This document shows positions 16,772-42,292 of a stretch of DNA of 64,000 bases, piece after piece. Position numbers and translations under genes: made by a program. This stretch comes from Ostreococcus lucimarinus (lineage: Eukaryota). Position 1 is the stretch's first letter; each line of letters begins with the position of its first letter. Location of the stretch: assembly GCA_000092065.1 (NCBI GenBank), contig CP000601.1; one strand, written 5' to 3'. Below the pieces are notes generated by a model. It saw only the letters and a list, made by a program, of their open reading frames with translations. It searched no databases and was not told where the DNA came from.

Positions 16772-17044
16772 CGACGTTTCGCCGTCTTTCGCGCGCGTCG
16801 CGCGGCGATTCCGCGCGCCGACGCCGCGCGCGCCCGTTATAAAGCCTTCGCGACGCGCGCGCGCGCCGCGGTCGCGCTCGACGCGACGCGCGCCGCGTCG
16901 CCGCGTTTTGAAGCGCTGGAAAGTGTGCTTTTCGCTCGCAGTCGCGCTCGGCGCCGCACAGCGCGACGACGACGCGCGCCCGGACGCTCGCGCGCGCCGC
17001 GACGAATCCCCGAGACGACGCCCGAGCGAGCGTCGGCGCCGACG

Positions 17045-21063: not shown

Positions 21064-22383
21064 TCAGTACTGCTCCGCGAACACGACGTCATCGCTGCGA
21101 TAGTTCTTCTTCTTCTTCTTCAGTCTCACGTTCAGGATCAAGTGCACTTTGCGATTGAGCGCGCGCTCGAGCATCGCTCTGGCGTTGATGCCGATTCGCC
21201 CGACGACTTCGCCCGACTTTCCGACGACTATTTTCCTCTGCGACGCGGTGTCGACTAAAATATTTTGCTCTATGCGCGCGTCACCGTTTCTAAAGTCTTC
21301 CCACGAGACGTGCGCGATGTCGATGCCGTACGGTAAATCTTCGTGCACGCCGTCGTACACGCTCTCGCGCACGATTTCCAGCGCCCTCTGCGCCGGCGTC
21401 ATATCGCTCGTCGACGTCGCGTCGAACTCCCACGGCGCCTCCCGAGCGCCGGCGACGATGTGATCCATCAGCGCTCTCGTTCCCGCCCCCGTGAGCGCGC
21501 TGACGGGAAACACGCGCGCGAATTCAAAATCCCCCGCGGCGCGGAAATCGTCCACCATCTTCGTCAACCCCGCGCGTCGCTCCTTCGGAATCTTATCAAC
21601 CTTATTCAGCACCAGCACCGCCTCCGGCGGCGCGCGCATCTCCCCCAGCGCCGCTCGCGTCTTTCGCACCGCCTCCAGCACGCGCAAATCCCGTCGCTCC
21701 AACTGTCTCGCCGCGTCCACGACGAAGACCAACGCGTCGCACTCGCTCGCCAGCGCCGTCGCGTCCTCCACCTTTCTCGCGTGCGCCGCGTTCCTGTAGT
21801 GCTCGCGCCCCACGATCCCCGGCGCGTCCACGAACACCACCTGCGCGTCCCCGACCGTGCGCACCCCCAGCGCGCGCGTCCGCGTCGTGTTCGTCTTTCG
21901 ACTCACCGCGCTCACCGCGTCGCCGACGAGCGCGCACGCCAGCGCGCTCTTCCCCGCGTTCGGCGCGCCCAGCACGCCGACCCGCGACAACTTTTCGACG
22001 CGACGCGCGCCGTCGTCGCGGTACGCGCCGTCGCGCGCGTCCGCGCGCGCCGTCGCGTCCCACGCGCGCGCTCGCCGCGCCGCCGCCGCCGCCGCCGCGC
22101 GCGTCGACCGCGCGATCGCCGCCGCCACCGCCGCGCGTCGACGCTTCGACTCCAGGTACGACGACGACGGCGCGCACCGCGACGACGTCGTCCCGTCGCA
22201 CGCGCCGCGCGCGCGCGCGCCGCGACGCCACCGCGACGCCGGCATCGACGACGACGTCGATTCGCGCCCTTCGCCGCCGCCGACGCGCGGCGCGGCGTCC
22301 GCGACCGCCGACGCGCCGCGCGCGGGTCGCGACGCGTTCGACGCGCCCGCGACGACGCGACGAAGCGCGCGCGACGCCGACAT
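21064..22383 (-). CDS. ERAL1: Era-like GTPase (ERAL1/Era family) with a C-terminal KH domain and an N-terminal organellar presequence
   Basis: G1 VGVLGAPNAGKSAL, G2 T, G3 FVDAPGI, G4 VLNKVDK, G5 SAL. KH domain RKIVVGKSGEVVGRIGINARAMLERALNRKVHLILNVRLKK. The start is chosen at the ATG (reverse complement of 22381-22383; MSASRALRRVVAG..). The upstream 183 codons of the track ORF (TTG start) are GC-rich low complexity. Start confidence is moderate. Confidence 0.8.
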   Translation of the reverse strand: MSASRALRRVVAGASNASRPARGASAVADAAPRVGGGEGRESTSSSMPASRWRRGARARGACDGTTSSRCAPSSSYLESKRRRAAVAAAIARSTRAAAAAAARRARAWDATARADARDGAYRDDGARRVEKLSRVGVLGAPNAGKSALACALVGDAVSAVSRKTNTTRTRALGVRTVGDAQVVFVDAPGIVGREHYRNAAHARKVEDATALASECDALVFVVDAARQLERRDLRVLEAVRKTRAALGEMRAPPEAVLVLNKVDKIPKERRAGLTKMVDDFRAAGDFEFARVFPVSALTGAGTRALMDHIVAGAREAPWEFDATSTSDMTPAQRALEIVRESVYDGVHEDLPYGIDIAHVSWEDFRNGDARIEQNILVDTASQRKIVVGKSGEVVGRIGINARAMLERALNRKVHLILNVRLKKKKKNYRSDDVVFAEQY

Positions 22384-23171: not shown

Positions 23172-23768
23172 ATGTGCCTGATCACGGACGAACACGGGAA
23201 CGCGCTTCCGGCGCTCGCGCGGTCGCCGGCGATGGGAACGTCGTCGAGCCGGGTGAAGGTGCCCTCGCCGCGGCGAGACGCGGCGGCGCGACGGGACGTC
23301 GCGAGCGCGCCGGCGTCGCCGCGCCGCGCGCGACGCGCGCCGAAGCGCGAGGACGCGAACGCGCGCGTCGAGTTTCGTCCGCGCGCGGTCTCGCGCGACG
23401 CGCGAAAGCACCGGCGCGCGAAGAGCGAAGAGGCGCGCGCGCGGGACGTCCCGAGACGAGAACGAGAACGAGAACGAGAACGCGCGGGGACGCTTTTCCA
23501 AGATTTCGACGCGCTCGGGATCGAACGGCGCGACGATTCGTCGGAATCGTCGCGCGCGGACGAGGGCGAACGACGCGCGAAGCCTCGCGTGGGTTACGCC
23601 TCGGTGGCGCCGATGAAGGAAATTCTACAGACCCGCGGGGGCTCCGCGCTCGAGGCGCTCGGGATTTTATTTCGAGATTCCGATCGAGAATTCGAGCGCG
23701 CGGCGGCGACGACGACGCCGTCGAGCGATGATTATTCTCGTCGTCTATCCTCGCGAGACGCGCTGTGA
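23172..23768 (+). CDS. Hypothetical low-complexity protein (198 aa) with an RE/RS-rich central region
   Basis: An ATG at 23172 opens an ORF with consistent G/C third positions: MCLITDEHGNALPALARSPAMGTSSSRVKVPSPRR.. RERERERE (from a (GAGAAC)4 repeat) ..FQDFDALGIERRDD..GYASVAPMKEILQTRGGSALEALGILFRD... No family recognised. The surrounding region is packed with overlapping GC-rich spurious ORFs, so confidence is low. Confidence 0.3.
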   Translation: MCLITDEHGNALPALARSPAMGTSSSRVKVPSPRRDAAARRDVASAPASPRRARRAPKREDANARVEFRPRAVSRDARKHRRAKSEEARARDVPRRERERERERAGTLFQDFDALGIERRDDSSESSRADEGERRAKPRVGYASVAPMKEILQTRGGSALEALGILFRDSDREFERAAATTTPSSDDYSRRLSSRDAL

Positions 23769-32808: not shown

Positions 32809-33036
32809 CTCACAGCGATAAATTTTTTAAAGTACTATCCGTCACCCCGAAACGACGAAAGTCACAGTGTTGTCGTGTCGCTTTTCCATCACGGACAATC
32901 GGGTGTGGGAAAAAGTAAGGTGTGATGTCGACACATCTCTTCCTGCGGGTTTCGATCCCGCGGCTTCCAGATCTCTATCGGAGCAGCCGTCATATTCGAC
33001 GGAGACTTTTTCCTAACAGTCTGACACTCTACCAGC
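32809..33036 (+). repeat. 228-bp dispersed repeat, copy 1 of 2 (same orientation as copy 2; about 98.7% identical)
   Basis: Alignable base-for-base with 38744-38971, with three mismatches. Contains a ZDRE-type palindrome ATGTCGACAC at 32925-32934, several hairpins (CCGTCATATTCGACGG; GCGGGTTTCGATCCCGC) and a T-arm-like GGATCGAAACC on the minus strand. Immediately preceded by the 13-bp palindrome CCCCCCATGGGGG. Confidence 0.85.
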
Positions 33037-33066
33037 AAAATTGTTTACAGAGATACCGCGACGAGA

Positions 33067-33530
33067 TTGAAGCAATACAAGGAACTCGATGGGCACCTGA
33101 TGAACGCCTCCGTGTGGGACGAGTATTTGACCCCAGAGATGCTCAGTCTGTATAATCCCGAAACAGACCAATTCGAGGAGCCCAAGCACTGGCTAAATGG
33201 GAAGCGTGTAGGAATTGCAATACTGGCGGATGATGTAAAATCGAGTCCGTTGCTGTCTAACAAAGCCTGGCGCAACCTGTGTATCAAATGCCGCCACCTT
33301 GGATCCTTCCCTGACAGTTCTCCACCAATAGGGTGCTCGATTTTCTGCGCGAGGTCAAGGACGCCGACGCGACGCTCCCAGACAAGTTGAAAGCCGAGGT
33401 ACCGACCATGCTTCAGAAAGGCGTGCGCGCGTATCTGGATTAAGCTTCACAAGTACCGTGGTGTGGGTAACATCTGGGACATCTTATCGAAATAATTCAT
33501 CGATGTTCGCCAGGAGATCGAGGAACAGGT
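33067..33530 (+). pseudogene. Decayed gene fragment(s): protein-like translations that switch frame, no intact ORF
   Basis: Frame 1 reads MKQYKELDGHLMNASVWDEYLTPEMLSLYNPETDQFEEPKHWLNGKRVGIAILADDVKSSPLLSNKAWRNL... A second frame reads ..RVLDFLREVKDADATLPDKLKAEVPTMLQKGVRAYLD*. These are non-repetitive, protein-like sequences separated by a frameshift and stops. No homolog recognised, so this is speculative. Confidence 0.25.
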
Positions 33531-33666
33531 GCCGTAAATTACGAAGAGCGTTTCGATTTACAATTTATATGATCCTCTAGCTTGAAAAATAGATCTCCGT
33601 CAGTGGCCGTGGGTGTGTTTGCCACAACTTGATTTGATAGTAATTGACATTTTTTTACCGCTCTCA

Positions 33667-35100
33667 TTAGTGCGCGTGTGCGTGTGAGTCTCCGCCACCG
33701 CCACCGCCTGTGCAATGCTTGTGGTTGAGGAGCACGAGACTGATGGCAACAACGCCGACGATGAAGGTGAGAATGCTCGTCGCGCGAAGACGAGGTGAAG
33801 TGGCGCTCACTGATACTCGGGGCATGCACTCTGCGGCGGCGATTTGCAGATAGACTCCAGCACCGAAGGCGAGCAGCAGTCCATGCCAGAAGTCGTTGTT
33901 ATTTCCCGATCCAACACTAATGAGGACGCCAAGAATGACACTCAAGCCGGAAACGAAGTTTAAAGTCAGCGTCGGCAACGGCGCGAGATCGCCCTGGAAG
34001 GGGTCTACGAGCACCAAGTAGTCAGCAAGCTCTTGAGCGATTTCGTGATAGACGGTCGCGGCGGTGATCGACCATCCCATGGTACTGTCGCAGTTCAGAA
34101 AGCCGAAGCCAATGAAAATACCATCCACTAGGTTGTGCATGAAATCTCCAAGAATGATACCACTTCGAACGCGATACTTGTGTGAGTTACAAGTACAAGT
34201 ATCACAGTCATCTTGAGCGCCTTTGACTGCAAGTTCCGCATCGGTTGTCTTCGCTGTATTTCCAAGAGTTGGGAACACGACAGAGATACCAAAGTCGATG
34301 AAGTAGGCCATGAGAAAGCCGAAGATAGAAGCGGAAGCCCACCATGCGGTCTGCTCTGCCTCATCCGAGCCAGCAGGTTTGATTAAATGCGTGGCTTCGT
34401 AGAACATCAGATAAAACGCAGCCGAAAGAAGTGCGCCGGCGGCAAACGAGTTAATTGTGCAACTCACAGTTTCAGGGTACGCTTTCTGCTTCTTAGCGAT
34501 ACTCGGGATGAGAAAGACCACACCAGAAAGTGTGACGATATTGACGATAATTGCCGCCCCAATGGCGTTGGCCCACGGTTTTGATTTCGATTCGCTCACG
34601 GTGGATGCTTCGGGAAGTGAAGCTTTTGGCACCACGTCATCTCCGTGGAGGTCCTTGAGATAGTGCGCGTCGCGCTCGAACTCGGTGGGAACGTGCTCAG
34701 CGAAGATTGAGATCGCGTCGATGCCAGTCGTATTAATCTTAAACGGCGTCGTGTGCCAGGTGTTGTCAAATTCAAGGTTGACACACCCACTATCAGGTGT
34801 CAAAACACTATCTCGTATCTTAGCCGTCGTACAAGCTCCCCCGATTGCGGTATCACCGCTATCCTCGCGGGCTTCGAGCTCGTCGTGTCCGGCGGCGATT
34901 TCGTCGTAGATGACCATTTTCATGGTATCGGCGGCGTACTTATCGGCCACCTTTTGCGCCTGCCACACGTATTCATTCTCTGGCGTCTCAAAGATTCCAG
35001 CCCATTCGAATGCGTGCGCGCCGGACGCGTGCGCGCCGCGCTGCGCGAGCGCGCTCGCGACGATCGCGATGCCACCACCGAGCGCGCTCGCGCAGCGCAT
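33667..35100 (-). CDS. ZIP: ZIP-family (ZRT/IRT-like, SLC39) divalent metal (zinc) transporter with an N-terminal signal peptide
   Basis: Signal peptide MRCASALGGGIAIVASALAQRGAHA. Large extracytosolic N-domain, then ZIP TM core with the signature HNLVDGIFIGFGF and HEIAQELADYLVL. Cytosolic loop with CDTCTCNSH, and a C-terminal GGGGGGDSHAHAH. ATG is the reverse complement of 35098-35100; an alternative upstream ATG at 35196 would put MTNENTKNTKTT.. before the signal peptide. Codon usage is atypical for this genome: C/T-ending GCC, GAT, GGT, ACT rather than GCG/ACG. Confidence 0.8.
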   Translation of the reverse strand: MRCASALGGGIAIVASALAQRGAHASGAHAFEWAGIFETPENEYVWQAQKVADKYAADTMKMVIYDEIAAGHDELEAREDSGDTAIGGACTTAKIRDSVLTPDSGCVNLEFDNTWHTTPFKINTTGIDAISIFAEHVPTEFERDAHYLKDLHGDDVVPKASLPEASTVSESKSKPWANAIGAAIIVNIVTLSGVVFLIPSIAKKQKAYPETVSCTINSFAAGALLSAAFYLMFYEATHLIKPAGSDEAEQTAWWASASIFGFLMAYFIDFGISVVFPTLGNTAKTTDAELAVKGAQDDCDTCTCNSHKYRVRSGIILGDFMHNLVDGIFIGFGFLNCDSTMGWSITAATVYHEIAQELADYLVLVDPFQGDLAPLPTLTLNFVSGLSVILGVLISVGSGNNNDFWHGLLLAFGAGVYLQIAAAECMPRVSVSATSPRLRATSILTFIVGVVAISLVLLNHKHCTGGGGGGDSHAHAH

Positions 35101-35325
35101 CGTTCGCCCTCGTCGTCGCTCGACCGTCCTCGCACCGCGTGCGCGTTCGCGCGGCGGCATCGTCGTCTTCGTGTTCTTCGTGTTTTCGTTCGTCATCGTT
35201 TCCGTCGTCGTCGTCGTCTTCGCCGGCGTCGGTAAGTGCGGCTGCGCACAAACTAAAGCGGCATACGAACCGAACCGGCGCGATGGAGGGCGGTCGTTTA
35301 TAAGTCACGACTCGCGAACGACAAA

Positions 35326-35482
35326 ATGTCGACATCCGCCGCAGTGTCGACACATCTCGGTGGTACTTGGATATGTCGAAATATGTCGACATGTGCGTCG
35401 AGACGTTTTTCGTATATAGATGCATCACGGGGTTCAATGCGTACACGCGCGTGGGTAAATATGTCGACATGCGTGTCGACAT
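35326..35482. promoter_or_regulatory. Cluster of five perfect Zinc-Deficiency-Response-Element motifs (RTGTCGACAY) in the shared ZIP/COG0523 divergent promoter
   Basis: ATGTCGACAT at 35326-35335. GTGTCGACAC at 35344-35353. ATGTCGACAT at 35383-35392, preceded by the half-site ATGTCGAAAT. ATGTCGACAT at 35461-35470. GTGTCGACAT at 35473-35482. All are 10-bp palindromes matching the Arabidopsis bZIP19/bZIP23 ZDRE consensus. They lie 130-380 bp upstream of the ZIP ATG and 180-330 bp upstream of the COG0523 ATG. Confidence 0.6.
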
Positions 35483-35546
35483 GTTTACGACGCGCGTCGC
35501 GACGCGATCCGTGATGGGCTTCGCGGGGCGTCGCGTACGACGATCC

Positions 35547-35589
35547 TCGACACGTGCACGACGCGAATCGTCGACACGTGCACGACGCG
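35547..35589. promoter_or_regulatory. Duplicated 19-bp motif TCGACACGTGCACGACGCG (half-ZDRE fused to a CACGTG G-box/E-box), 70-110 bp upstream of the COG0523 ATG
   Basis: Two copies separated by 5 bp: 35547-35565 and 35571-35589. Each contains CACGTG, at 35551-35556 and 35575-35580. Confidence 0.4.
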
Positions 35590-35658
35590 CGCGCATCGCC
35601 GCACTTCGCGACGCCTCTTCGGCTCGTTCGCGCGCGGAGACGTCGATCGCCGTACATC

Positions 35659-37299
35659 ATGTCCACACCCGCCGCAATCGCCAATCATAATCGATTGCCG
35701 GTGACAACGCTGTGCGGGTTCCTCGGCGCTGGGAAGACGACAACTCTGAAACGCGTGCTCGAAGCTAAGCGAGACGCGAACGGAAAGTTTCGGTGTGCCG
35801 TCGTCGTGAACGACGTCGCGGAGTTGAACATCGACAAAAAATTAATCGATGATTCCGCTTTGCTGCAGAGCGACGAGGTGGTTGCCATGCAGAACGGATG
35901 CGTGTGCTGTTCGTTGAGCGGAGACTTTGTAAAACAAATCGGGGACATGGCCAAGAGTGGCAATTTTGACTACATGATCGTAGAGGCATCAGGAGTGTCG
36001 GAACCGGCGGAAATTGCGAAACTCTTCGCAAATTGTGAGGACGATCACGATCATGAAGCTGCGCACGTTGATGAGCATGAACATTTGAGCACACTGGCGC
36101 GGCTGGATACGTGCGTGACGGTCATCGCTGCAGGTGACTTTCTCGACATGATTGATTCTTTCAGGGCGTCAGCTGTGAACAGGCAGTCTTACTCTCAATT
36201 GTTGGCTGAACAGATAGAGTACGCGAATGTCGTCGTATTGAACAAGGTCGACACTGTCGATGACGAACAACTCGCCGAGATTAAAGCGCAGATACAACTT
36301 CTCAATTCACGTGCTGATATTCTTGAAGCTGTGAACGGCGCGATCGACGTTACGCGAATCGTCAATACAAAACTTTACAAAGAGAATGACTTTGCTGGTT
36401 TCATAACATGGGAACAAGAGATAGAAGCAACATCTGTGAAGTCATGCTGCGCCGGCGCTAGGGACAAAGGTGAGTCTCCATGCTGTAAGCGAGCTCGCAT
36501 GAGAGAAACAGCCTTAAGCGAGGTCACGCTTGCACCAAGTTCTTCCCAAACACGTCACGATAGTCGGTTCGGTATTACGTCTTTCATTTACCGAGCCAGA
36601 AGACCTTTTCATCCCAAACGGTTTTTAGGCTCATTTGTCGAGCGCTTCTTCAGCTCCCTCGAGGCCGATGACCGTGATGAAGAAAAAGATGAAGAGACAC
36701 CAAGTGTAGACTGGAGTGCAGTGAAAGATATTCGAGCGCGACAAGAAGCGATGAAACTCAAGCGCCGTAAAAGGGAAGGTGAAATTGGTGTGCTGCTACG
36801 TTCGAAGGGTGTAACGTGGCTCAGTGATGCCCACGACTTGATAATTGTTTTCAGTCAGGCTGGTAATATTTACTCTCTCGAAGGATCAAGCCGATGGACC
36901 GCGCTGAATAAAAATGCTTGGGTCGGCTCACAGGGGATAAAGCAAGAACTTCGTAAAGACTGGGAGGGGCCTTATGGTGATCGCCGACAAGAACTGGTGT
37001 TCATTGGCAAGGATCTTAAATACGATGAAATTCAATCAACGTTGGACTCTTGCCTCTTGACCGACGAAGAATTCGAAATGGGTTCTGATGGCTGGAGAGC
37101 AGTCATGGGTGATGTCTTTCTAGACGAAGACGACGAAGACGAAGACGACGAAGTCGATGACGAAGACGACGAAGAAATCGACGAAGATTTGGTCGACGAC
37201 GAGGAGATCGAAGAGGAGATCAGGCCGCAACCCACTTCAAAGTCGAAGGCAAAACCAAAGGCAAAGTCGGCGCCCTCTCAAAACGACGGCTTAGTCTGA
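35659..37299 (+). CDS. ZNG1: COG0523/CobW-family GTPase (ZNG1-type zinc metallochaperone) with a His-rich linker and a long poly-acidic C-terminal tail
   Basis: ATG at 35659. P-loop GFLGAGKTT, metal-binding GCVCC, switch/NKVD motif VLNKVD. His-rich stretch EDDHDHEAAHVDEHEHL. CobW_C domain GITSFIYRARRPFHPKRFLGSF .. WLSDAHDLIIVFSQAGNIYSLE. Acidic tail DEDDEDEDDEVDDEDDEEIDEDLVDDEEIEEE. Atypical codon usage with many A/T-ending codons. The internal GTGAGT..TTTTTAG is not an intron, because the in-frame read-through encodes the conserved CobW_C motif. Confidence 0.85.
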   Translation: MSTPAAIANHNRLPVTTLCGFLGAGKTTTLKRVLEAKRDANGKFRCAVVVNDVAELNIDKKLIDDSALLQSDEVVAMQNGCVCCSLSGDFVKQIGDMAKSGNFDYMIVEASGVSEPAEIAKLFANCEDDHDHEAAHVDEHEHLSTLARLDTCVTVIAAGDFLDMIDSFRASAVNRQSYSQLLAEQIEYANVVVLNKVDTVDDEQLAEIKAQIQLLNSRADILEAVNGAIDVTRIVNTKLYKENDFAGFITWEQEIEATSVKSCCAGARDKGESPCCKRARMRETALSEVTLAPSSSQTRHDSRFGITSFIYRARRPFHPKRFLGSFVERFFSSLEADDRDEEKDEETPSVDWSAVKDIRARQEAMKLKRRKREGEIGVLLRSKGVTWLSDAHDLIIVFSQAGNIYSLEGSSRWTALNKNAWVGSQGIKQELRKDWEGPYGDRRQELVFIGKDLKYDEIQSTLDSCLLTDEEFEMGSDGWRAVMGDVFLDEDDEDEDDEVDDEDDEEIDEDLVDDEEIEEEIRPQPTSKSKAKPKAKSAPSQNDGLV

Positions 37300-37399
37300 T
37301 GTCTTTCTAGGTGACACTGAAGCGGAACAGGGTGGAGATGTGGACTCGGGCAACTCTTCCGACATGTAAGCTTGTCCTTTATAGTGAGCCCACACCGAT

Positions 37400-37696
37400 G
37401 TGAGCGCAAGTCATTTTTATGCACACAGTGACATCTTCATCGAATACCAGACGTGGTTGCCAGCGGCTGCGCGCGGTCAAGATAGCGCGACGAAGGTCGG
37501 CAATAAGCTCAAGGACTTCTTCAAGAAGGAAAAGGGCCACAGGGTCCCAATGGAAGAGGACCACCTGAGGCAAGGTAGAGACGAGAAGGGCGTCTATTGG
37601 GAAATTCACCGCGACGGGTGCTTCGAGTGGCTGAAGGACAATGGGTACACAGGGGAGACGGAGCTCGCGCCGGCGGTCGTCTGGTGCTCATACTAA
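37400..37696 (+). CDS. Small hypothetical ORF (98 aa) inside the atypical cassette
   Basis: MSASHFYAHSDIFIEYQTWLPAAARGQDSATKVGNKLKDFFKKEKGHRVPMEEDHLRQGRDEKGVYWEIHRDGCFEWLKDNGYTGETELAPAVVWCSY. Non-repetitive and protein-like. No family recognised. Lies between the COG0523 gene and a MITE-like element. Confidence 0.25.
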   Translation: MSASHFYAHSDIFIEYQTWLPAAARGQDSATKVGNKLKDFFKKEKGHRVPMEEDHLRQGRDEKGVYWEIHRDGCFEWLKDNGYTGETELAPAVVWCSY

Positions 37697-37761
37697 TTTT
37701 GTAATTCGTACATTTGCAATATGAAGACTCAACGAGACACCAAAAAGACCATGGTTTGGAT

Positions 37762-37942
37762 CCTGACGAAATGACGAATGACGAACTGTTTTCATAAAGG
37801 TCCACACTGTTGCTTGTCATAGATCTAAAATAAAAATAAACATTAAAATATTTTAACATTTCGTCATTTTCATCATTGGTACACACAAAGTGTCACCGAA
37901 CGACGGGTTGACGAATTTGTGGACGACAAAACAAGTTCGTCA
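37762..37942. mobile_element. MITE-like element: 181-bp AT-rich segment bounded by 17/18-bp terminal inverted repeats
   Basis: Left end CCTGACGAAATGACGAAT at 37762-37779. Right end TTCGTCATTTCGTCAGG at 37926-37942. The right end's reverse complement is CCTGACGAAATGACGAA, 17 of 18 matching. The interior is AT-rich (..ctaaaataaaaataaacattaaaatattttaac..) with further GACGAA/TTCGTC palindromes. No coding capacity. Confidence 0.4.
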
Positions 37943-38130
37943 TTTCGTCAGGTCTCGACGGATCACGAACGTCCAGGTGTGAAATCAGGCGGTTCGGTAT
38001 CTACATTCCGGACCTTGCAGCCCACGCAGCGATACGCGTACCTATGGTCTCTCGGATGTGACTGCAAACCGCAGGAGGAGGCACTTTTGGCAACAATATT
38101 TTCTTAGGGATAGATAGGTAACCAGGACAA

Positions 38131-38628
38131 ATGCCGTCGGGATGCGTGTACGAAATGTTTAGCGATAATGCGAAATGTAACAAAACGTACATCGGATCGA
38201 CGACGGGTTCGCTCAGAGCGCGCCTTGCCTCGCATAAATACGCACGACATCCAATCTTCACGTTTGGCGACGCGGACGTGAGAGTTCTCGAAAAGGACAT
38301 TCCAGCTGGAGAGCTCCATCAACGTAAAGGTGCCTACATGAGAGAGAAGCGTGACGGCTTATTCAACTCCCGAGCTGCTGGACGCAGCCAGAAACACGCG
38401 TGCCGCGAGAACGTGGACGAGAGTCCAGCCTACAGCAGAGCTCAATATACGCCGAAGCGGGACGGCGGCGATGGTAACTACAGACAACTCAATTATTACA
38501 AGCAGCACGCAAAAGGAATACTGCGCAAGACGTGCCTCAAGAATGCCCGAGCGCGCGGCACGCTGCCTTCGAAGCGCAGTCTCGACAAGTATCAATTTAC
38601 GGTAGATGAGTTACGCGGCTTGGCTTGA
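38131..38628 (+). CDS. GIY-YIG domain nuclease (homing-endonuclease-like), 165 aa
   Basis: ATG at 38131. N-terminal GIY-YIG motifs GCVYEMFSDNAKCNKTYIGSTTGSLRARLASHKY (GIY .. YIG-S-T .. R .. H). A basic C-terminal half follows (KRDGGDGNYRQLNYYKQHAKGILRK..). Atypical codon usage. Sits between a MITE-like element and the second 228-bp repeat. Confidence 0.7.
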   Translation: MPSGCVYEMFSDNAKCNKTYIGSTTGSLRARLASHKYARHPIFTFGDADVRVLEKDIPAGELHQRKGAYMREKRDGLFNSRAAGRSQKHACRENVDESPAYSRAQYTPKRDGGDGNYRQLNYYKQHAKGILRKTCLKNARARGTLPSKRSLDKYQFTVDELRGLA

Positions 38629-38743
38629 CCACTTCACTCACACGATTGGTTCTGGAGAAATCTTACATGCGGTACATCAACGTCGATGTGCGGTTTTATC
38701 ATGTTGGGGTGCCCCAACTCAAAAAAAAAGTTTATTTTTATTA

Positions 38744-38971
38744 CTCATAGCGATAAATTTTTTAAAGTACTATCCGTCACCCCGAAACGACGAAAGTCAC
38801 AGTGTTGTCGTGTCGCTTTTCCATCACGGACAATCGGGTATGGGAAAAAGTAAGGTTTGATGTCGACACATCTCTTCCTGCGGGTTTCGATCCCGCGGCT
38901 TCCAGATCTCTATCGGAGCAGCCGTCATATTCGACGGAGACTTTTTCCTAACAGTCTGACACTCTACCAGC
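38744..38971 (+). repeat. 228-bp dispersed repeat, copy 2 of 2
   Basis: About 98.7% identical to 32809-33036. ZDRE-type ATGTCGACAC at 38860-38869. Preceded by an A9 tract and AT-rich sequence. Ends 262 bp upstream of the ATG of the 39233 gene. Confidence 0.85.
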
Positions 38972-39232
38972 TGAGTTAAGGAAGACTGTTTATGCATACG
39001 CACAACATCGCGGACATTCGACTGCCCATGCTCTTTATTTCGAGGCTTAACTCGGCGAGGTGGACGAATAATTGGTATTATACGTCGCTCGATGGTGGGT
39101 TTGCGACAGATCTTCGCGGCTTGACGCCGTCGATCCGCGATCGCGAATGTTACAGGTTGAGGGCTCGGGCGAGGACGTCGGTGGTTTTCGCGCGTTCGTT
39201 CGTTCGTCGTCACTCCGCGGTCGAATCCATCG

Positions 39233-42200
39233 GTGGATACGATGGATTCGACGCGGTGCGCGACGTGCCGGGCCGTCGTGCGCGGCGGCGCGGCGACGTG
39301 CGCGGAATGCGGGGCGCCGCAGGGCTACGATTCGGATTCGGACGCAACGATTCGCGTCGACGATGACGATGATGACGATGATTCTTCGCACTACGCCCGG
39401 GACGCCCGGGACTCGAGCGCTTCAGACGCCGACTCGAGCACTTCCGCCTCGTCCACGACTCGGCGTCGGCGGGAAGTCGAGTCGCGCGAGCGGGAGATGG
39501 AGGAATCGCCCGAGGCGTTGAAATTGTTGTACATGCTGAGTTTGTACACCGACGCGTCTCAGAAACAGTCGAAGTCGAAGTCTGCGGTTTCCAACAACAA
39601 CAACAACAAACGTTCTCCCTGGATTCGCGAGCTGCCGCTCCTGGTGCTCGTGTACGAGGGCATCGTGCGAAACGCGGTGTTCGATTACGATTACGCGCCA
39701 AAATCAGAAAAGATATTTGGAGCGTGTCCGAGGTATTTGAACGTCTCGGAAGAGGGACGAGACGATTTAGACGATTTGCGTGAGCTTGGTTTCATCACGG
39801 CGCTCAAGGTGACGAGCGAGACGTACGATCACTCGACGTTGTTGAAGATTTCCAAGAAGGGGAGCGAATTCTTGCAGAGGATGACGGCCTCGGGACGGTT
39901 CACGAGCGCGATGCGCCAGTCGGTAGATTCGTTGGTGCACGAAGCTGGTCACCTCCTCGAGGTGCGGTACGACCGCGAGTCCTCGGATTTTTTCCTCACC
40001 GTCCCCTCGATCGGGGTCCGCATCCGCTCCACCATCACGGACGTCGAAGACGTGCCGTACGTCTCGTCTCCGTACATCCCTCCGCACATGCTGAGCTCCG
40101 ATGCGTTCACACCGAACGCGTTGAACGGGCACAAAAAGGCAAAACGCGTGCTCGGCGGCGCCGTTCAAAGTAGTCGCGATATTCGCGACCCGCGCCTGAG
40201 TGAAAGTATCTTGCTCGACTCGGTGAAAATCATCGTCACCGAATACGTGCCGATGGGATCGAACGAAATGGTTTCTTTCTGTAGAAAACTCGGCACGGGA
40301 GACCGCGTCGCGGGCGGTATGTTCACCGCGGAAGCGAGCGCGACGCAGGACGAATTCAACATGGTGGTCGGGATCAACGCCGACAATAAAACCGAGCTAA
40401 AAGTCCTCGACGTCGACGAAACGCGATTCGTAAACGTCGAGGCAGACTTGCTCGCCACCGGGGCGCCCAAGAGTAACTTGGTGCAGCAGCAAATCGAGGT
40501 TTTCGGCATCAACTTTCGGGAAAACGGCGCCATCACTTACGGCATCGTCGTCAACGGCATCGCCGATCGAATTCGAAACGATATCAGCGTCGATTTACTC
40601 GCGCGCTTACTTTCCGACGTCCACGAAGACACGAGCTCGCTGGTGGGAAATTTATTTTCCGAGCGTCAGCGCTCCATGTTGAACATCACATACAAGGGCG
40701 AGCCGGACAATCGCGACAAGTTTACGTGCATCATCGCCGAGCGCGCGACGCCAAAACTGAAAGCCGCGGCGTACATGGATGGTGAAGATAACGAAAACGA
40801 GCTCAAGCAAGTCATCGGCGCGACGTTTTACGCGTACGACCTGAACGAACAAGAAGTCATCGTCTTTGGTTCACGCGGTGTCGTCGTCTTTGGTCCGCGC
40901 ACCGAACGTCATCACAAGCTTCTCGCGACATATTCAGCGTTCCAAGCTCGCTCGTTGTTCATCAAAAGTGTCTTCAGCAGTTGTTTCGCGCTGAACGACG
41001 AGTTGAAGAAGACGCGAGCGTTGATTGAAACCTATCAGATCGATCCGACGAACGTAACGCGCATTCGTTCGCGCCTCGCCGATCACACGACGACGGTGAC
41101 GATCTTGAGCGCCACTCAGCAGTTCGTGCTCGAGTCGCTCGAAAACGTCGACACGTCTCGTGAAAAGTTGAGCGCGGATATGAGCGACGGCGCGTCGCAA
41201 GTGTTGTACGACTTGTTTCAGTTGGAACCGTCGTGGAAACGCTTGCAAAGACGCGCCGTTGACTTGGAAAAAGTCATCGCGGCGTGCGTCAACGATCTCG
41301 AGTCTCTGCGAGAAATGAACGCCGTCATCGGCTCACGAAGAAAGCTCCGCATCAACGAGGCGATAGAAGGGACGACGAAAAACTTAGAGGATGCTTTCCG
41401 AGCGCAGGCGCGCAACAGCACCACGCTCGAGGTGACGCAAGTGATTTTGTCGGGGACGCTCGCGTTTGACATTCTCGATCGATTCACGGGGCAATACCTT
41501 TCGTTCACCGAGATTCGATGGGCCGTCGAAGCGGTGCAGCCGTACATAGTGAATGTTCCCGCGGTTTGGTTCATCTTGAACATGCTCGCGTGGTCGGCGT
41601 TGGGCGGTGGAATTGTTTATTTGATGCGCTACTTGGCCTACATGCATTGCAGCGTGGAGACGAAAAAGCTCACACTCAATAAACCCATTCATTTGTCGCG
41701 ATGGCGGCGATTCATCGCGACGCGCAACGTGGAGTCGACGGCTTTTAAGGAGGAGAACAACCGTCGCGTGGTGAAATACGGCTGGACCGAGCCCATCGAC
41801 GTCAAAAAGTGGAAAGGAACGCCCCCGAAGATTAACGTCACCATCGACGAGCGATACGGTTTCATCTTGCAAGCGATGATCATCATCAATAAGCGCACGT
41901 GTACGCTCTCCGGCGATGCGGTGTGGCGTCAATTTTGGAGCGATGTTTTCGTCGCTCGCAACGTCCACGATCAAAGTCGAGAGCTGTTTGACACCGACAC
42001 CGGCGACCGTTTGCAAACGGCCGAATATTCGTCAGAAGAAGAAGACGAGACTCGCCGCGACGTCACGGCCAAGATCATCGGCATCGACAACCGAAAGTCC
42101 ACGTTAAAGTGGCGCGATGGCAGGCAAATCCTCGCGCAAGACGACACCGACGACGACATCGATTCGGACGAGGAGGCGATCGCGAAGACGGGCGATTTGA

Positions 42201-42292
42201 CGTTTGAAGGCTTCGTCGCGTCCAGGTCGTTGAAACTCGCTCGAGAGGAAGAGAAGGCTAAAAAGAAACGAGCGGCAAGGATGGAAAAGTGA
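39233..42292 (+). CDS. Large orphan protein (1019 aa) with an N-terminal CxxC..CxxC zinc ribbon, an acidic/low-complexity region and one predicted TM helix near the C-terminus
   Basis: ATG at 39233. MDTMDSTRCATCRAVVRGGAATCAECGAPQGY is zinc-ribbon-like. Poly-D and poly-N tracts. Long non-repetitive body with coiled-coil-like stretches. TM segment VPAVWFILNMLAWSALGGGIVYLMRYLAY. K/E-rich tail. Core-like G-ending codon bias. No family recognised. Confidence 0.7.
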   Translation: MDTMDSTRCATCRAVVRGGAATCAECGAPQGYDSDSDATIRVDDDDDDDDSSHYARDARDSSASDADSSTSASSTTRRRREVESREREMEESPEALKLLYMLSLYTDASQKQSKSKSAVSNNNNNKRSPWIRELPLLVLVYEGIVRNAVFDYDYAPKSEKIFGACPRYLNVSEEGRDDLDDLRELGFITALKVTSETYDHSTLLKISKKGSEFLQRMTASGRFTSAMRQSVDSLVHEAGHLLEVRYDRESSDFFLTVPSIGVRIRSTITDVEDVPYVSSPYIPPHMLSSDAFTPNALNGHKKAKRVLGGAVQSSRDIRDPRLSESILLDSVKIIVTEYVPMGSNEMVSFCRKLGTGDRVAGGMFTAEASATQDEFNMVVGINADNKTELKVLDVDETRFVNVEADLLATGAPKSNLVQQQIEVFGINFRENGAITYGIVVNGIADRIRNDISVDLLARLLSDVHEDTSSLVGNLFSERQRSMLNITYKGEPDNRDKFTCIIAERATPKLKAAAYMDGEDNENELKQVIGATFYAYDLNEQEVIVFGSRGVVVFGPRTERHHKLLATYSAFQARSLFIKSVFSSCFALNDELKKTRALIETYQIDPTNVTRIRSRLADHTTTVTILSATQQFVLESLENVDTSREKLSADMSDGASQVLYDLFQLEPSWKRLQRRAVDLEKVIAACVNDLESLREMNAVIGSRRKLRINEAIEGTTKNLEDAFRAQARNSTTLEVTQVILSGTLAFDILDRFTGQYLSFTEIRWAVEAVQPYIVNVPAVWFILNMLAWSALGGGIVYLMRYLAYMHCSVETKKLTLNKPIHLSRWRRFIATRNVESTAFKEENNRRVVKYGWTEPIDVKKWKGTPPKINVTIDERYGFILQAMIIINKRTCTLSGDAVWRQFWSDVFVARNVHDQSRELFDTDTGDRLQTAEYSSEEEDETRRDVTAKIIGIDNRKSTLKWRDGRQILAQDDTDDDIDSDEEAIAKTGDLTFEGFVASRSLKLAREEEKAKKKRAARMEK

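Follow-up and report, generated by a model that had tools for sequence, protein, structure and literature searches.

The window analyzed here, a 64,000-nucleotide stretch of contig CP000601.1 (GenBank assembly GCA_000092065.1) of the alga Ostreococcus lucimarinus, contains at positions 38131–38628 of the plus strand a small free-standing gene for a protein belonging to the GIY-YIG nuclease superfamily, and this gene and the cassette that carries it are our subject. The open reading frame (ORF) runs from ATG to stop and encodes 165 amino acids beginning with MPSGCVYEMFSDNAKCNKTYIGSTTGSLRARLASHK, the N-terminus quoted in an initial annotation made from the sequence alone. The protein is identical to XP_001421138.1/XP_001422817.1 of O. 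lucimarinus CCE9901, and the UniProt label of XP_001421138 is already 'GIY-YIG domain-containing protein'. The window comes from the nuclear genome, and the two ORFs adjoining the gene are also exact matches to annotated CCE9901 proteins. O. lucimarinus has a second paralog (P0035), for which an exact look-up gave no contig, and further copies occur in multiple contexts described below.

The gene lies 115 bp from one junction of a 5.9-kb cassette that comprises, in order, a remnant of a viral packaging ATPase, a gene for a ZIP-family metal transporter, a gene for a CobW-type GTPase, the 3′ remnant of a primase-helicase gene, an iteron-like element, and the GIY-YIG gene, and that is bounded by two copies of a 228-bp direct repeat overlapping a tRNA-Asn gene (Table 1). 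The neighbors named by the initial annotation, an element resembling a miniature inverted-repeat transposable element (MITE), an A9 tract, and the second 228-bp repeat, are all present, and its remark that codon usage is atypical was borne out: the GC content at third codon positions (GC3) is 0.60 for the GIY-YIG ORF, whereas the three host genes that precede the cassette have values of 0.79–0.82 and the 1019-aa gene that follows it has 0.73. GC3 of the cassette genes ranges from 0.52 to 0.62, and the coding GC content of the ZIP and CobW genes is 0.50–0.55, compared to 0.63–0.68 for the adjacent host genes.

Table 1. Features of the tRNA-Asn-linked cassette and its boundaries (window coordinates; K66, lysine at residue 66; nt, nucleotide).
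Feature	Coordinates	Strand	Basis and remarks
228-bp direct repeat copy A, left cassette boundary	32809–33036		98.7% identical to copy B; left flank is the flank of the empty allele
Polinton-like virus (PLV) packaging-ATPase remnant, middle part, Walker B 'IAILADDV'	33037–33387	+	Cut at repeat boundary, frameshifted downstream
ZIP-family metal transporter gene	33667–35196	−	Pfam Zip in orthologous filled-site products; GC3 0.62
Five RTGTCGACAY motifs, divergent ZIP/CobW promoter	35326–35482		Motif scan; consensus from plants (PMC5476651)
CobW/COG0523-type GTPase gene	35659–37299	+	Pfam cobW 6e-41, CobW_C 1.5e-18; GC3 0.52
Helicase 3′ remnant ('ORF98', 37400–37696), last ~90 codons, PrimPol-D5 type	37425–37696	+	nt identity 93.6% to the 3′ end of the L002 733-aa gene, 94% to L027–L032
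'MITE-like' element	37762–37952		Perfect 17-nt inverted arms; inverted TGACGAA heptamer clusters around an AT-rich core
GIY-YIG gene with helix-turn-helix (HTH)-like module (predicted), 165 aa, K66 variant	38131–38628	+	Sequence, profile, fold, and residue comparisons
Shared 3′ end of the helicase-GIY unit	38700–38743		Hairpin GGGGTGCCCC (38706–38715), A9 tract (38721–38729), GTTTATTTTTATTAC
228-bp direct repeat copy B, right cassette boundary	38744–38971		98.7% identical to copy A
tRNA-Asn(GTT), complete, 41-nt canonical intron	38872–38985	−	Rfam tRNA 49 bits, E 1.8e-7; ARAGORN with introns c[38872,38985], anticodon gtt

The window protein matched the Pfam GIY-YIG profile (PF01541) over residues 4–37 only and below the gathering threshold (16.7 bits against a cut-off of 22.6), whereas nine of ten sampled relatives matched it, and eight exceeded the cut-off, with matches spanning profile positions 2–74; homology to GIY-YIG proteins is thus transitive. 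The ten relatives were sampled from 1203 proteins detected at E ≤ 1e-3 when a profile built from 16 family members was searched against 1.84 billion representatives. An AlphaFold model (predicted local distance difference test, pLDDT, 72) contained a β-β-α-β-α core (strands 3–11 and 19–24, helix 28–37, strand 48–58, and helix 59–72), followed by a disordered stretch at residues 80–115 and a helical C-terminus at residues 118–161. A Foldseek comparison with models of viral proteins (BFVD) gave 41 matches at E ≤ 1e-3 (best 7e-6). With one exception, an iridovirus MSV199-domain protein, the named matches were GIY-YIG proteins or intron/homing endonucleases from giant viruses, chloroviruses, phages, and the mavirus virophage, the last a GIY-YIG protein also of 165 aa. 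Among PDB structures, the top seven Foldseek matches were UvrC GIY-YIG domains, all weak (E 0.1 or worse). Taking profiles and models together, we regard homology of the ORF to the GIY-YIG superfamily as secure. The protein had no match in PHROGs or NCBIfam, and a PDB sequence search returned a single chance match to a ribosomal protein and was uninformative.

The basic tail that the initial annotation had placed behind the GIY-YIG module is also real. The isoelectric point of the protein is 9.9, and residues 117–165 include 12 Lys or Arg residues and 3 Asp or Glu residues. The same C-terminal module occurs as three tandem copies in another protein (P0222), which matches DUF1153 at 28.8 bits, a family that we take to be a member of the HTH clan. 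We infer that the tail, basic and predicted to be helical, forms a small HTH-like module that would bind DNA.

To locate the catalytic residues, we aligned the family with the GIY-YIG domain of T. maritima UvrC, with a sequence numbering that agrees with the PDB mutant names Y19F, Y29F, Y43F, and N88A. The two signature motifs, which in the superfamily are spaced about 10–12 residues and occupy two β strands, are both present (G4-C-V-Y7 and Y20-I-G22); Y20 and G22 are invariant in the family and Y7 nearly so. R31 and H35, which align with UvrC R39 and Y43, are invariant, as is N79, the conserved Asn after the second helix. The residues of reference are R27/H31, E75, and N90 in I-TevI and R39/Y43, E76, and N88 in UvrC, and the Glu (I-TevI E75 or UvrC E76) is essential for catalysis. 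Family position 66, which aligns with the metal-binding UvrC E76, is Glu in nearly all profile matches. The set Y7-Y20-R31-H35-E66-N79 is complete in 27 of 27 copies from viral contexts; in the Ostreococcus-type copies (at least 85% identical to the window protein), position 66 is Lys in 29 of 29, with Y7, Y20, R31, H35, and N79 kept. Because K66 replaces the essential Glu, loss of nuclease activity is predicted, and the window protein most likely binds DNA and does not cut it. The 'clear catalytic module' of the initial annotation therefore holds for the GIY-YIG core and is overstated as to catalysis.

The K66 clade is nevertheless kept under moderate purifying selection. The ratio of nonsynonymous to synonymous divergence (dN/dS) was 0.25–0.34 among K66 paralogs at a dS of ~0.12 (binomial p = 0.004), and 0.05–0.12 for the adjoining helicase. 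All ten recovered copies of the cassette encode an identical intact protein (100% aa identity), and the 90% cluster of the window protein has 898 member sequences. The window protein itself has private changes, R92 and G129, at positions otherwise conserved in the family. We predict from these comparisons that the K66 clade, which is new, represents a natural nuclease-dead GIY-YIG protein that is still conserved. The 32 close homologs of the window protein are all from marine metagenomes; no NCBI-sourced protein of another species stood among those listed, and no O. tauri homolog surfaced there. We found no link between the window family and an O. tauri 'GIY-YIG nuclease ostta16g00515' whose expression rises under iron limitation (PMC4855317).

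Homologs with sequence context point to the source of the gene. Contig L002 (13.6 kb) encodes a 60%-identical GIY-YIG copy beside a 733-aa Prim-Pol/DUF5906 primase-helicase, and it also has candidate genes for a penton protein and a packaging ATPase. For the L002 446-aa protein, a 94%-identical homolog was modeled (pLDDT 86) as a double jelly-roll (DJR) capsid protein, and Foldseek matched this model to PBCV-1 Vp54 (2e-16) and also to SGIV, Sputnik, and PRD1; the capsid assignment comes from structure prediction alone, as searching PDB sequences with the capsid and ATPase candidates gave no useful match. The predicted capsid fold, with the penton and ATPase candidates, identifies L002 as a PLV. 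The contexts of the sequence homologs are likewise virus-like contigs of ~14–23 kb with a PrimPol-helicase, a small DJR capsid protein, a penton protein, and an ATPase, which is the PLV gene set. Among IMG/VR viral contigs, no relative of the GIY-YIG family, the viral capsid protein, or the helicase was found. Stand-alone GIY-YIG genes have been described as common in virophages, polintons, and PLVs (PMC3671162, PMC12220804), and Ostreococcus genomes are reported to have one to two PLV/virophage-type capsid genes each (Bellas et al. 2023, PMC10120064).

Scanning metagenomes with the profile of the family recovered 33 further loci, 24 with a GIY-YIG protein 44–71% identical in amino-acid sequence. 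Gene order was constant in all 24: primase-helicase, a 406–528-aa gene, GIY-YIG, a 162-aa adenine methyltransferase, and, further on, p117, the major capsid protein (MCP), and penton. Because one position is kept across this range of identities, the GIY-YIG gene is a stable viral gene of the PLV lineage and not a hopping homing-endonuclease gene. The methyltransferase gene is co-oriented and begins 29–41 nt downstream of the GIY-YIG gene in 18 loci, and five of six methyltransferases tested scored above the cut-off of the Pfam EcoRI_methylase (N6-adenine) profile. This arrangement suggests that nuclease and methylase may form a restriction-modification-like pair in the parental PLVs; a similar idea has been raised for the HNH gene of another PLV (PMC12220804). 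Most K66 copies, including that in the window, have no methyltransferase beside them; L001, whose GIY-YIG copy is frameshifted, keeps a methyltransferase fragment. The E-to-K change could reflect this loss, if absence of a protecting methylase favored inactivation of the nuclease. The GIY-YIG gene is missing from PLVs that share the capsid family and are more distantly related. The PLV lineage is associated with Ostreococcus-like picoalgae, and the GIY-YIG family is a fixed gene of that lineage.

The 406–528-aa gene directly upstream of GIY-YIG in the PLVs (L002 4329–5915; L024 2388–3653; L026 360–1580) belongs to no detectable family. A C-terminal pattern picked out by eye (R...K...RHA...HS...Y) raised the possibility of a tyrosine recombinase, which we dropped when Pfam, a PDB profile search, a large homology search, and hhalign with XerD and Cre sequences were all negative. 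Plant-type telomere repeats, (CCCTAAA)n, are found at the ends of two PLV-bearing contigs (L002 1–71; L018 4–101), and in L018, a 185-kb algal contig, a truncated capsid gene lies 2.4 kb from the end. PLVs may sit near or at chromosome ends.

Endogenous copies of the gene belong to a unit of ~3.4 kb made up of the primase-helicase gene, the iteron-like element, and the GIY-YIG gene, which recurs at 93–97% nt identity; its flanks vary from copy to copy, and the right end is shared. On long algal contigs (0.09–1.24 Mb), the K66 gene lies downstream of an intact 733-aa helicase gene. The window unit is 5′-truncated at 37425 and ends at 38743, directly against repeat copy B, and its segment 37425–37953 is 93.6% identical in nucleotide sequence to the 3′ end of the L002 helicase gene plus the sequence downstream. 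In an eight-copy alignment, sequence was common up to 38743 in all but the degenerate L001 copy, and flanks diverged beyond that point. The 'MITE-like' element is present in every helicase-GIY unit and twice in L002 (326–510 and 3814–3998), where the two copies flank the helicase gene; in the window it holds 7 of the 27 TGACGAA sites. The element belongs to the viral sequence, and judging from this distribution, it resembles an origin of iteron type or a regulatory region more than it does a transposon. At L027 ~7231 (also in L028, L029, L031, and L032), ~140 bp upstream of the helicase gene, assemblies that are otherwise 99.8–99.98% identical have entirely different left flanks; this site is a rearrangement hot spot of low GC content (0.47–0.57). 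A second, inverted K66 GIY-YIG copy lies 7 kb away in L028, L030, and L031.

At the boundaries of the cassette, repeat copy B holds the 3′ 100 nt of the complete tRNA-Asn gene and 128 bp downstream of it. Copy A holds the same 100 nt, without the first 14 nt of the tRNA, and the same 128 bp, and ARAGORN found no complete tRNA there. Immediately inside copy A, a hidden Markov model of the L002, L020, and L022 ATPases detected a six-frame piece at 33025–33387 with an E value of 1.4e-12, compared to 2.3 for the next best piece of the window, and the pairwise BLASTP E value was 4e-4. With this ATPase remnant on the left and the helicase-GIY remnant on the right, viral remnants stand at both ends of the repeat-bounded segment. 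A tblastx comparison of L002 with the window found no MCP or penton homolog in the window, and the cassette holds viral fragments only. Overall GC content is 0.50–0.52 for L001 and L002 and 0.61–0.64 for contigs representing the host flanks.

Presence or absence of the cassette is polymorphic. Contigs were compared if they encoded the identical JmjC protein, and their flanks were 98–99.7% identical to the window. Filled alleles (L005, L007, L011, and L013) have the window arrangement; empty alleles (L003, L004, and L006) have the JmjC gene, a single 228-bp segment with the tRNA, and then a 1028-aa gene. The two forms differ by exactly 33037–38971, or 5935 bp, which is one repeat plus the interior. 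This difference fits the product expected of a Campbell-type single-crossover integration of a circle, or of a deletion between the repeats. A 3.9-kb metagenomic contig (L017 1–3941) reads GIY-YIG, repeat, ATPase remnant, and ZIP, as would be expected of a circle or a tandem; we did not count this junction as evidence, as the assembler k-mer of 127 is shorter than the repeat and the contig may be a chimera. A second cassette haplotype occupies the same site in L005 (13700–16509): its ZIP gene is 94% identical and mosaic, with a more diverged 5′ end, and an unrelated 404-aa COG0523 gene stands in place of the window CobW gene.

The cassette interior is occupied by zinc-type genes and motifs. 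The sequence RTGTCGACAY occurs seven times in the window, compared to 0.45 expected, and none of 100 shuffles reached seven; besides the five sites in the ZIP/CobW promoter, one lies in each 228-bp repeat (32925–32934 and 38860–38869). It is the consensus of the plant zinc-deficiency response element, and a survey found no F-bZIP protein in O. lucimarinus and placed the origin of the circuit in land plants (PMC5476651). The motif is also found in promoters of ZIP and CobW paralogs (L028 5095 and 5113; L005 13915, 13933, and 14835), once in a promoter shared with a bZIP gene. In L028, an 82%-identical (nt) ZIP paralog adjoins the helicase-GIY unit; L028, L030, and L031 each have a ZIP paralog together with a bZIP gene immediately to the left of the intact unit, and a further CobW paralog at a distance of 5.5 kb on its right side. 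The association of helicase-GIY viral units with zinc-type genes is thus recurrent.

The same tRNA-Asn gene has additional insertions in most other strains: 100 nt in the D-loop, and 87 nt where the T-arm meets the acceptor stem (L003 11510–11609; L007 9832–9918; L015 3384–3470). On the sense strand of the tRNA, both have the spliceosomal-intron-like form GTAAGT...ACTGAC...CAG, and excising them would give back the exact tRNA. Their presence varies: the window has neither, and the 87-nt insertion lies within copy A in some strains and within copy B in L015. The 100-nt insertion enters the D-loop at the point where the 228-bp repeat has its right edge. No further copies of the insertions were found in the DNA examined, and folding of the tRNA with the 100-nt insertion gave no clear bulge-helix-bulge (z = −0.17).

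We consider it probable that the window gene is a PLV-derived, nuclease-dead GIY-YIG/HTH gene and a passenger of the tRNA-Asn-linked cassette. The ORF encodes a GIY-YIG domain, a disordered linker, and a basic HTH-like domain; in the PLVs, the gene lies directly upstream of a small N6-adenine methyltransferase gene, and nuclease and methylase may have worked as a restriction-modification-like pair. The window copy belongs to an endogenous sub-lineage, present as the ~3.4-kb helicase-GIY unit in several Ostreococcus-type contexts, which usually lacks the methylase and has exchanged Glu for Lys; its protein would most likely be a sequence-specific DNA-binding protein without nuclease activity. 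The 5′-truncated unit forms the right end of the low-GC cassette and the ATPase remnant its left end, and the cassette may enter or leave the chromosome by recombination through the 228-bp segment, as integration or pop-out of a putative circular intermediate. The GIY-YIG gene would be a passenger of this recombination and not its engine. The initial annotation had supposed that the gene might be the mobility factor of the cassette, and such a role is unlikely because the catalytic Glu is missing, gene position is fixed in the parental viruses, and the junctions are long tRNA-derived direct repeats, a signature of recombination and not the footprint of an endonuclease. Its proposal of a viral or mobile origin stands in that homologs occur in small DJR-capsid viruses, and changes in that these belong to a PLV lineage and not to nucleocytoplasmic large DNA viruses (NCLDVs) or prasinoviruses. 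A housekeeping origin was not supported: a Pfam scan found neither the RING/PHD finger of SLX1 nor the C-terminal domains of UvrC in the 165-aa protein, the gene is missing from empty-site strains, and homologs with context are viral or element-borne.

Several observations weigh against this reconstruction or parts of it. Insertion and deletion fit the polymorphism alike. No integrase was found among the cassette ORFs (window 28–36 kb and 36.5–40.5 kb), and no viral relative was found that has the 228-bp tRNA segment, as an attachment site (attP) would require. Truncation of the ATPase remnant falls precisely on the edge of the repeat, and whatever integrated was therefore already a degenerate mosaic and not an intact virus. 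ZIP and CobW genes have not been seen in intact PLVs, yet here they lie between two viral remnants. Acidic residues near position 66 (E61, E72, and D75) could in principle replace E66, and the restriction-modification reading takes gene adjacency as its sole basis.

The domesticated remnant also envisaged by the initial annotation is possible, though we judge it unlikely: the alga would keep the gene as a nuclease-dead DNA-binding protein, for example for immunity to PLVs or prasinoviruses by occupying their target sites, or for regulation of neighboring genes. An intact ORF that is 100% identical in ten of ten cassette copies, a dN/dS of ~0.3 among paralogs, and fixation of K66 across a diverse clade would all be expected of such a protein. 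Strains with the empty site lack the gene, however, which is hence dispensable; purifying selection may equally act on a still-active helicase-GIY element; and no O. tauri ortholog stands among the listed close homologs. Rather unlikely, in our estimation, is a more elaborate scheme in which, in wild Ostreococcus populations, the tRNA-Asn locus gains and loses a PLV-derived circle bearing genes for zinc acquisition (the ZIP transporter and the COG0523 GTPase, with the five zinc-deficiency-type motifs in their promoter), with the GIY-YIG/HTH protein exapted, for example for immunity against an incoming PLV nuclease.

We consider it improbable that the gene is a functionless relic, open only because the insertion is recent. 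The unit is truncated, with ~90 helicase codons left, the L001 copy is frameshifted, the catalytic residue is lost, and the window protein has its private R92 and G129 changes, all as a relic would predict; against this, dN/dS of the window copy versus its paralogs is significantly below 1 at a dS of ~0.12, a weak argument in that much of the divergence may predate the truncation. A maintained DNA-binding remnant and a young relic both fit this copy.

An active free-standing homing endonuclease would cut the empty tRNA-Asn site, and repair from the filled allele would copy the cassette. The architecture of GIY-YIG domain, linker, and predicted DNA-binding domain resembles that of I-TevI and the Seg enzymes, T4 SegB offers the analogy of a GIY-YIG gene in a phage tRNA gene cluster, the gene is close to the junction, strains that are nearly identical differ in having the cassette, and the right edge of the repeat is the D-loop site that receives a 100-nt insertion in other strains. 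Homing would leave no 228-bp target duplication, though, and it is also opposed by K66 in all 29 Ostreococcus-type copies and by the fixed gene position in 24 viral loci; in a haploid such as Ostreococcus, it would also depend on matings, which are rare. We regard homing as very unlikely. Insertion from a giant virus (a prasinovirus or other NCLDV) is extremely improbable, for although structural neighbors include giant-virus and chlorovirus GIY-YIG proteins and local GC content is low, the homologs lie amid the PLV gene set in ~14–23-kb contigs, IMG/VR viral contigs hold no relative, and the helicase and ATPase remnants match PLVs, at up to 94% nt identity.

Two further observations concern the surroundings of the cassette. 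ARAGORN with introns reported three more intron-containing tRNAs on the minus strand (16852–16996, 22211–22323, and 23506–23603; Leu-CAA, Phe-GAA, and Thr-CGT), which Rfam did not report at its gathering score and which may be false positives. The 1019-aa gene downstream of the tRNA (39233–42292) encodes an N-terminal zinc-ribbon-like CxxC...CxxC motif, and its orthologs carry Pfam MJ1567 and MJ1566_N, families not usually met with in nuclear genes of eukaryotes.

That virophages and PLVs have GIY-YIG genes, and that this protein bears a GIY-YIG label, was already known. The conserved K66 clade is new and provides material for studying a natural, predicted nuclease-dead GIY-YIG protein. Also new are the pairing of nuclease and adenine methyltransferase genes in the parental PLVs, which hints at restriction-modification in small eukaryotic viruses, and a cassette, linked to tRNA-Asn and polymorphic in nature, whose zinc-homeostasis genes have PLV remnants on either side. 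Should the cassette prove mobile, algal viruses would be linked to the way in which the smallest marine eukaryotes exchange genes for trace-metal uptake, and if it moves as a circle, small algal viruses would shuttle micronutrient-uptake genes between strains.

Among known systems, I-TevI and the T4 Seg enzymes share an N-terminal GIY-YIG domain of ~80–90 aa, a flexible linker, and a C-terminal HTH, which is predicted here; SegB is free-standing near a tRNA gene, and the window gene is also free-standing and close to one. Unlike those enzymes, the window protein has no catalytic Glu, its family shows no sporadic, insertion-like distribution among related viruses, and the junctions are long direct repeats. 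The GIY-YIG type II restriction enzymes Eco29kI, Cfr42I, and Hpy188I have cognate methyltransferases, and chloroviruses encode restriction-modification systems; the 18 viral loci, with a GIY-YIG gene followed by a co-oriented methyltransferase gene, are like these in adjacency only. The PLV methylase is unusually small at 162 aa, and the window copy has neither methylase nor catalytic Glu. The stand-alone genes of virophages, polintons, and PLVs (mavirus MV06, OLV1/OLV24, and cryptophyte PLVs) also encode small GIY-YIG proteins of small DJR-capsid viruses of protists, the mavirus likeness being one of structure match. The family described here differs in having an HTH-like C-terminal module and no C2H2 zinc ribbon, in its fixed place beside an adenine methyltransferase gene, and in the change from Glu to Lys in its endogenous clade.

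As in endogenous PLV and virophage integrations of protists (PMC10120064), helicase, ATPase, and GIY-YIG remnants lie in an algal nuclear chromosome; here, however, they are fragments only, the window has no capsid gene, the genes between them are metal-homeostasis genes of cellular type, and they stand beside a tRNA gene with a 228-bp duplication. A study of cryptophyte PLVs found no tRNA genes near integration sites (PMC12220804). A further parallel is with tRNA-targeted elements such as prophages, genomic islands, and archaeal integrated viruses, which likewise have a complete tRNA gene at one end and a repeat of its 3′ part at the other, occur as empty and filled alleles, and have a foreign base composition. 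In the window, the host is a eukaryote, no integrase is recognizable, and the 228-bp repeat runs 128 bp past the tRNA; because the repeat extends so far beyond the tRNA, a homologous single crossover fits at least as well as site-specific recombination.

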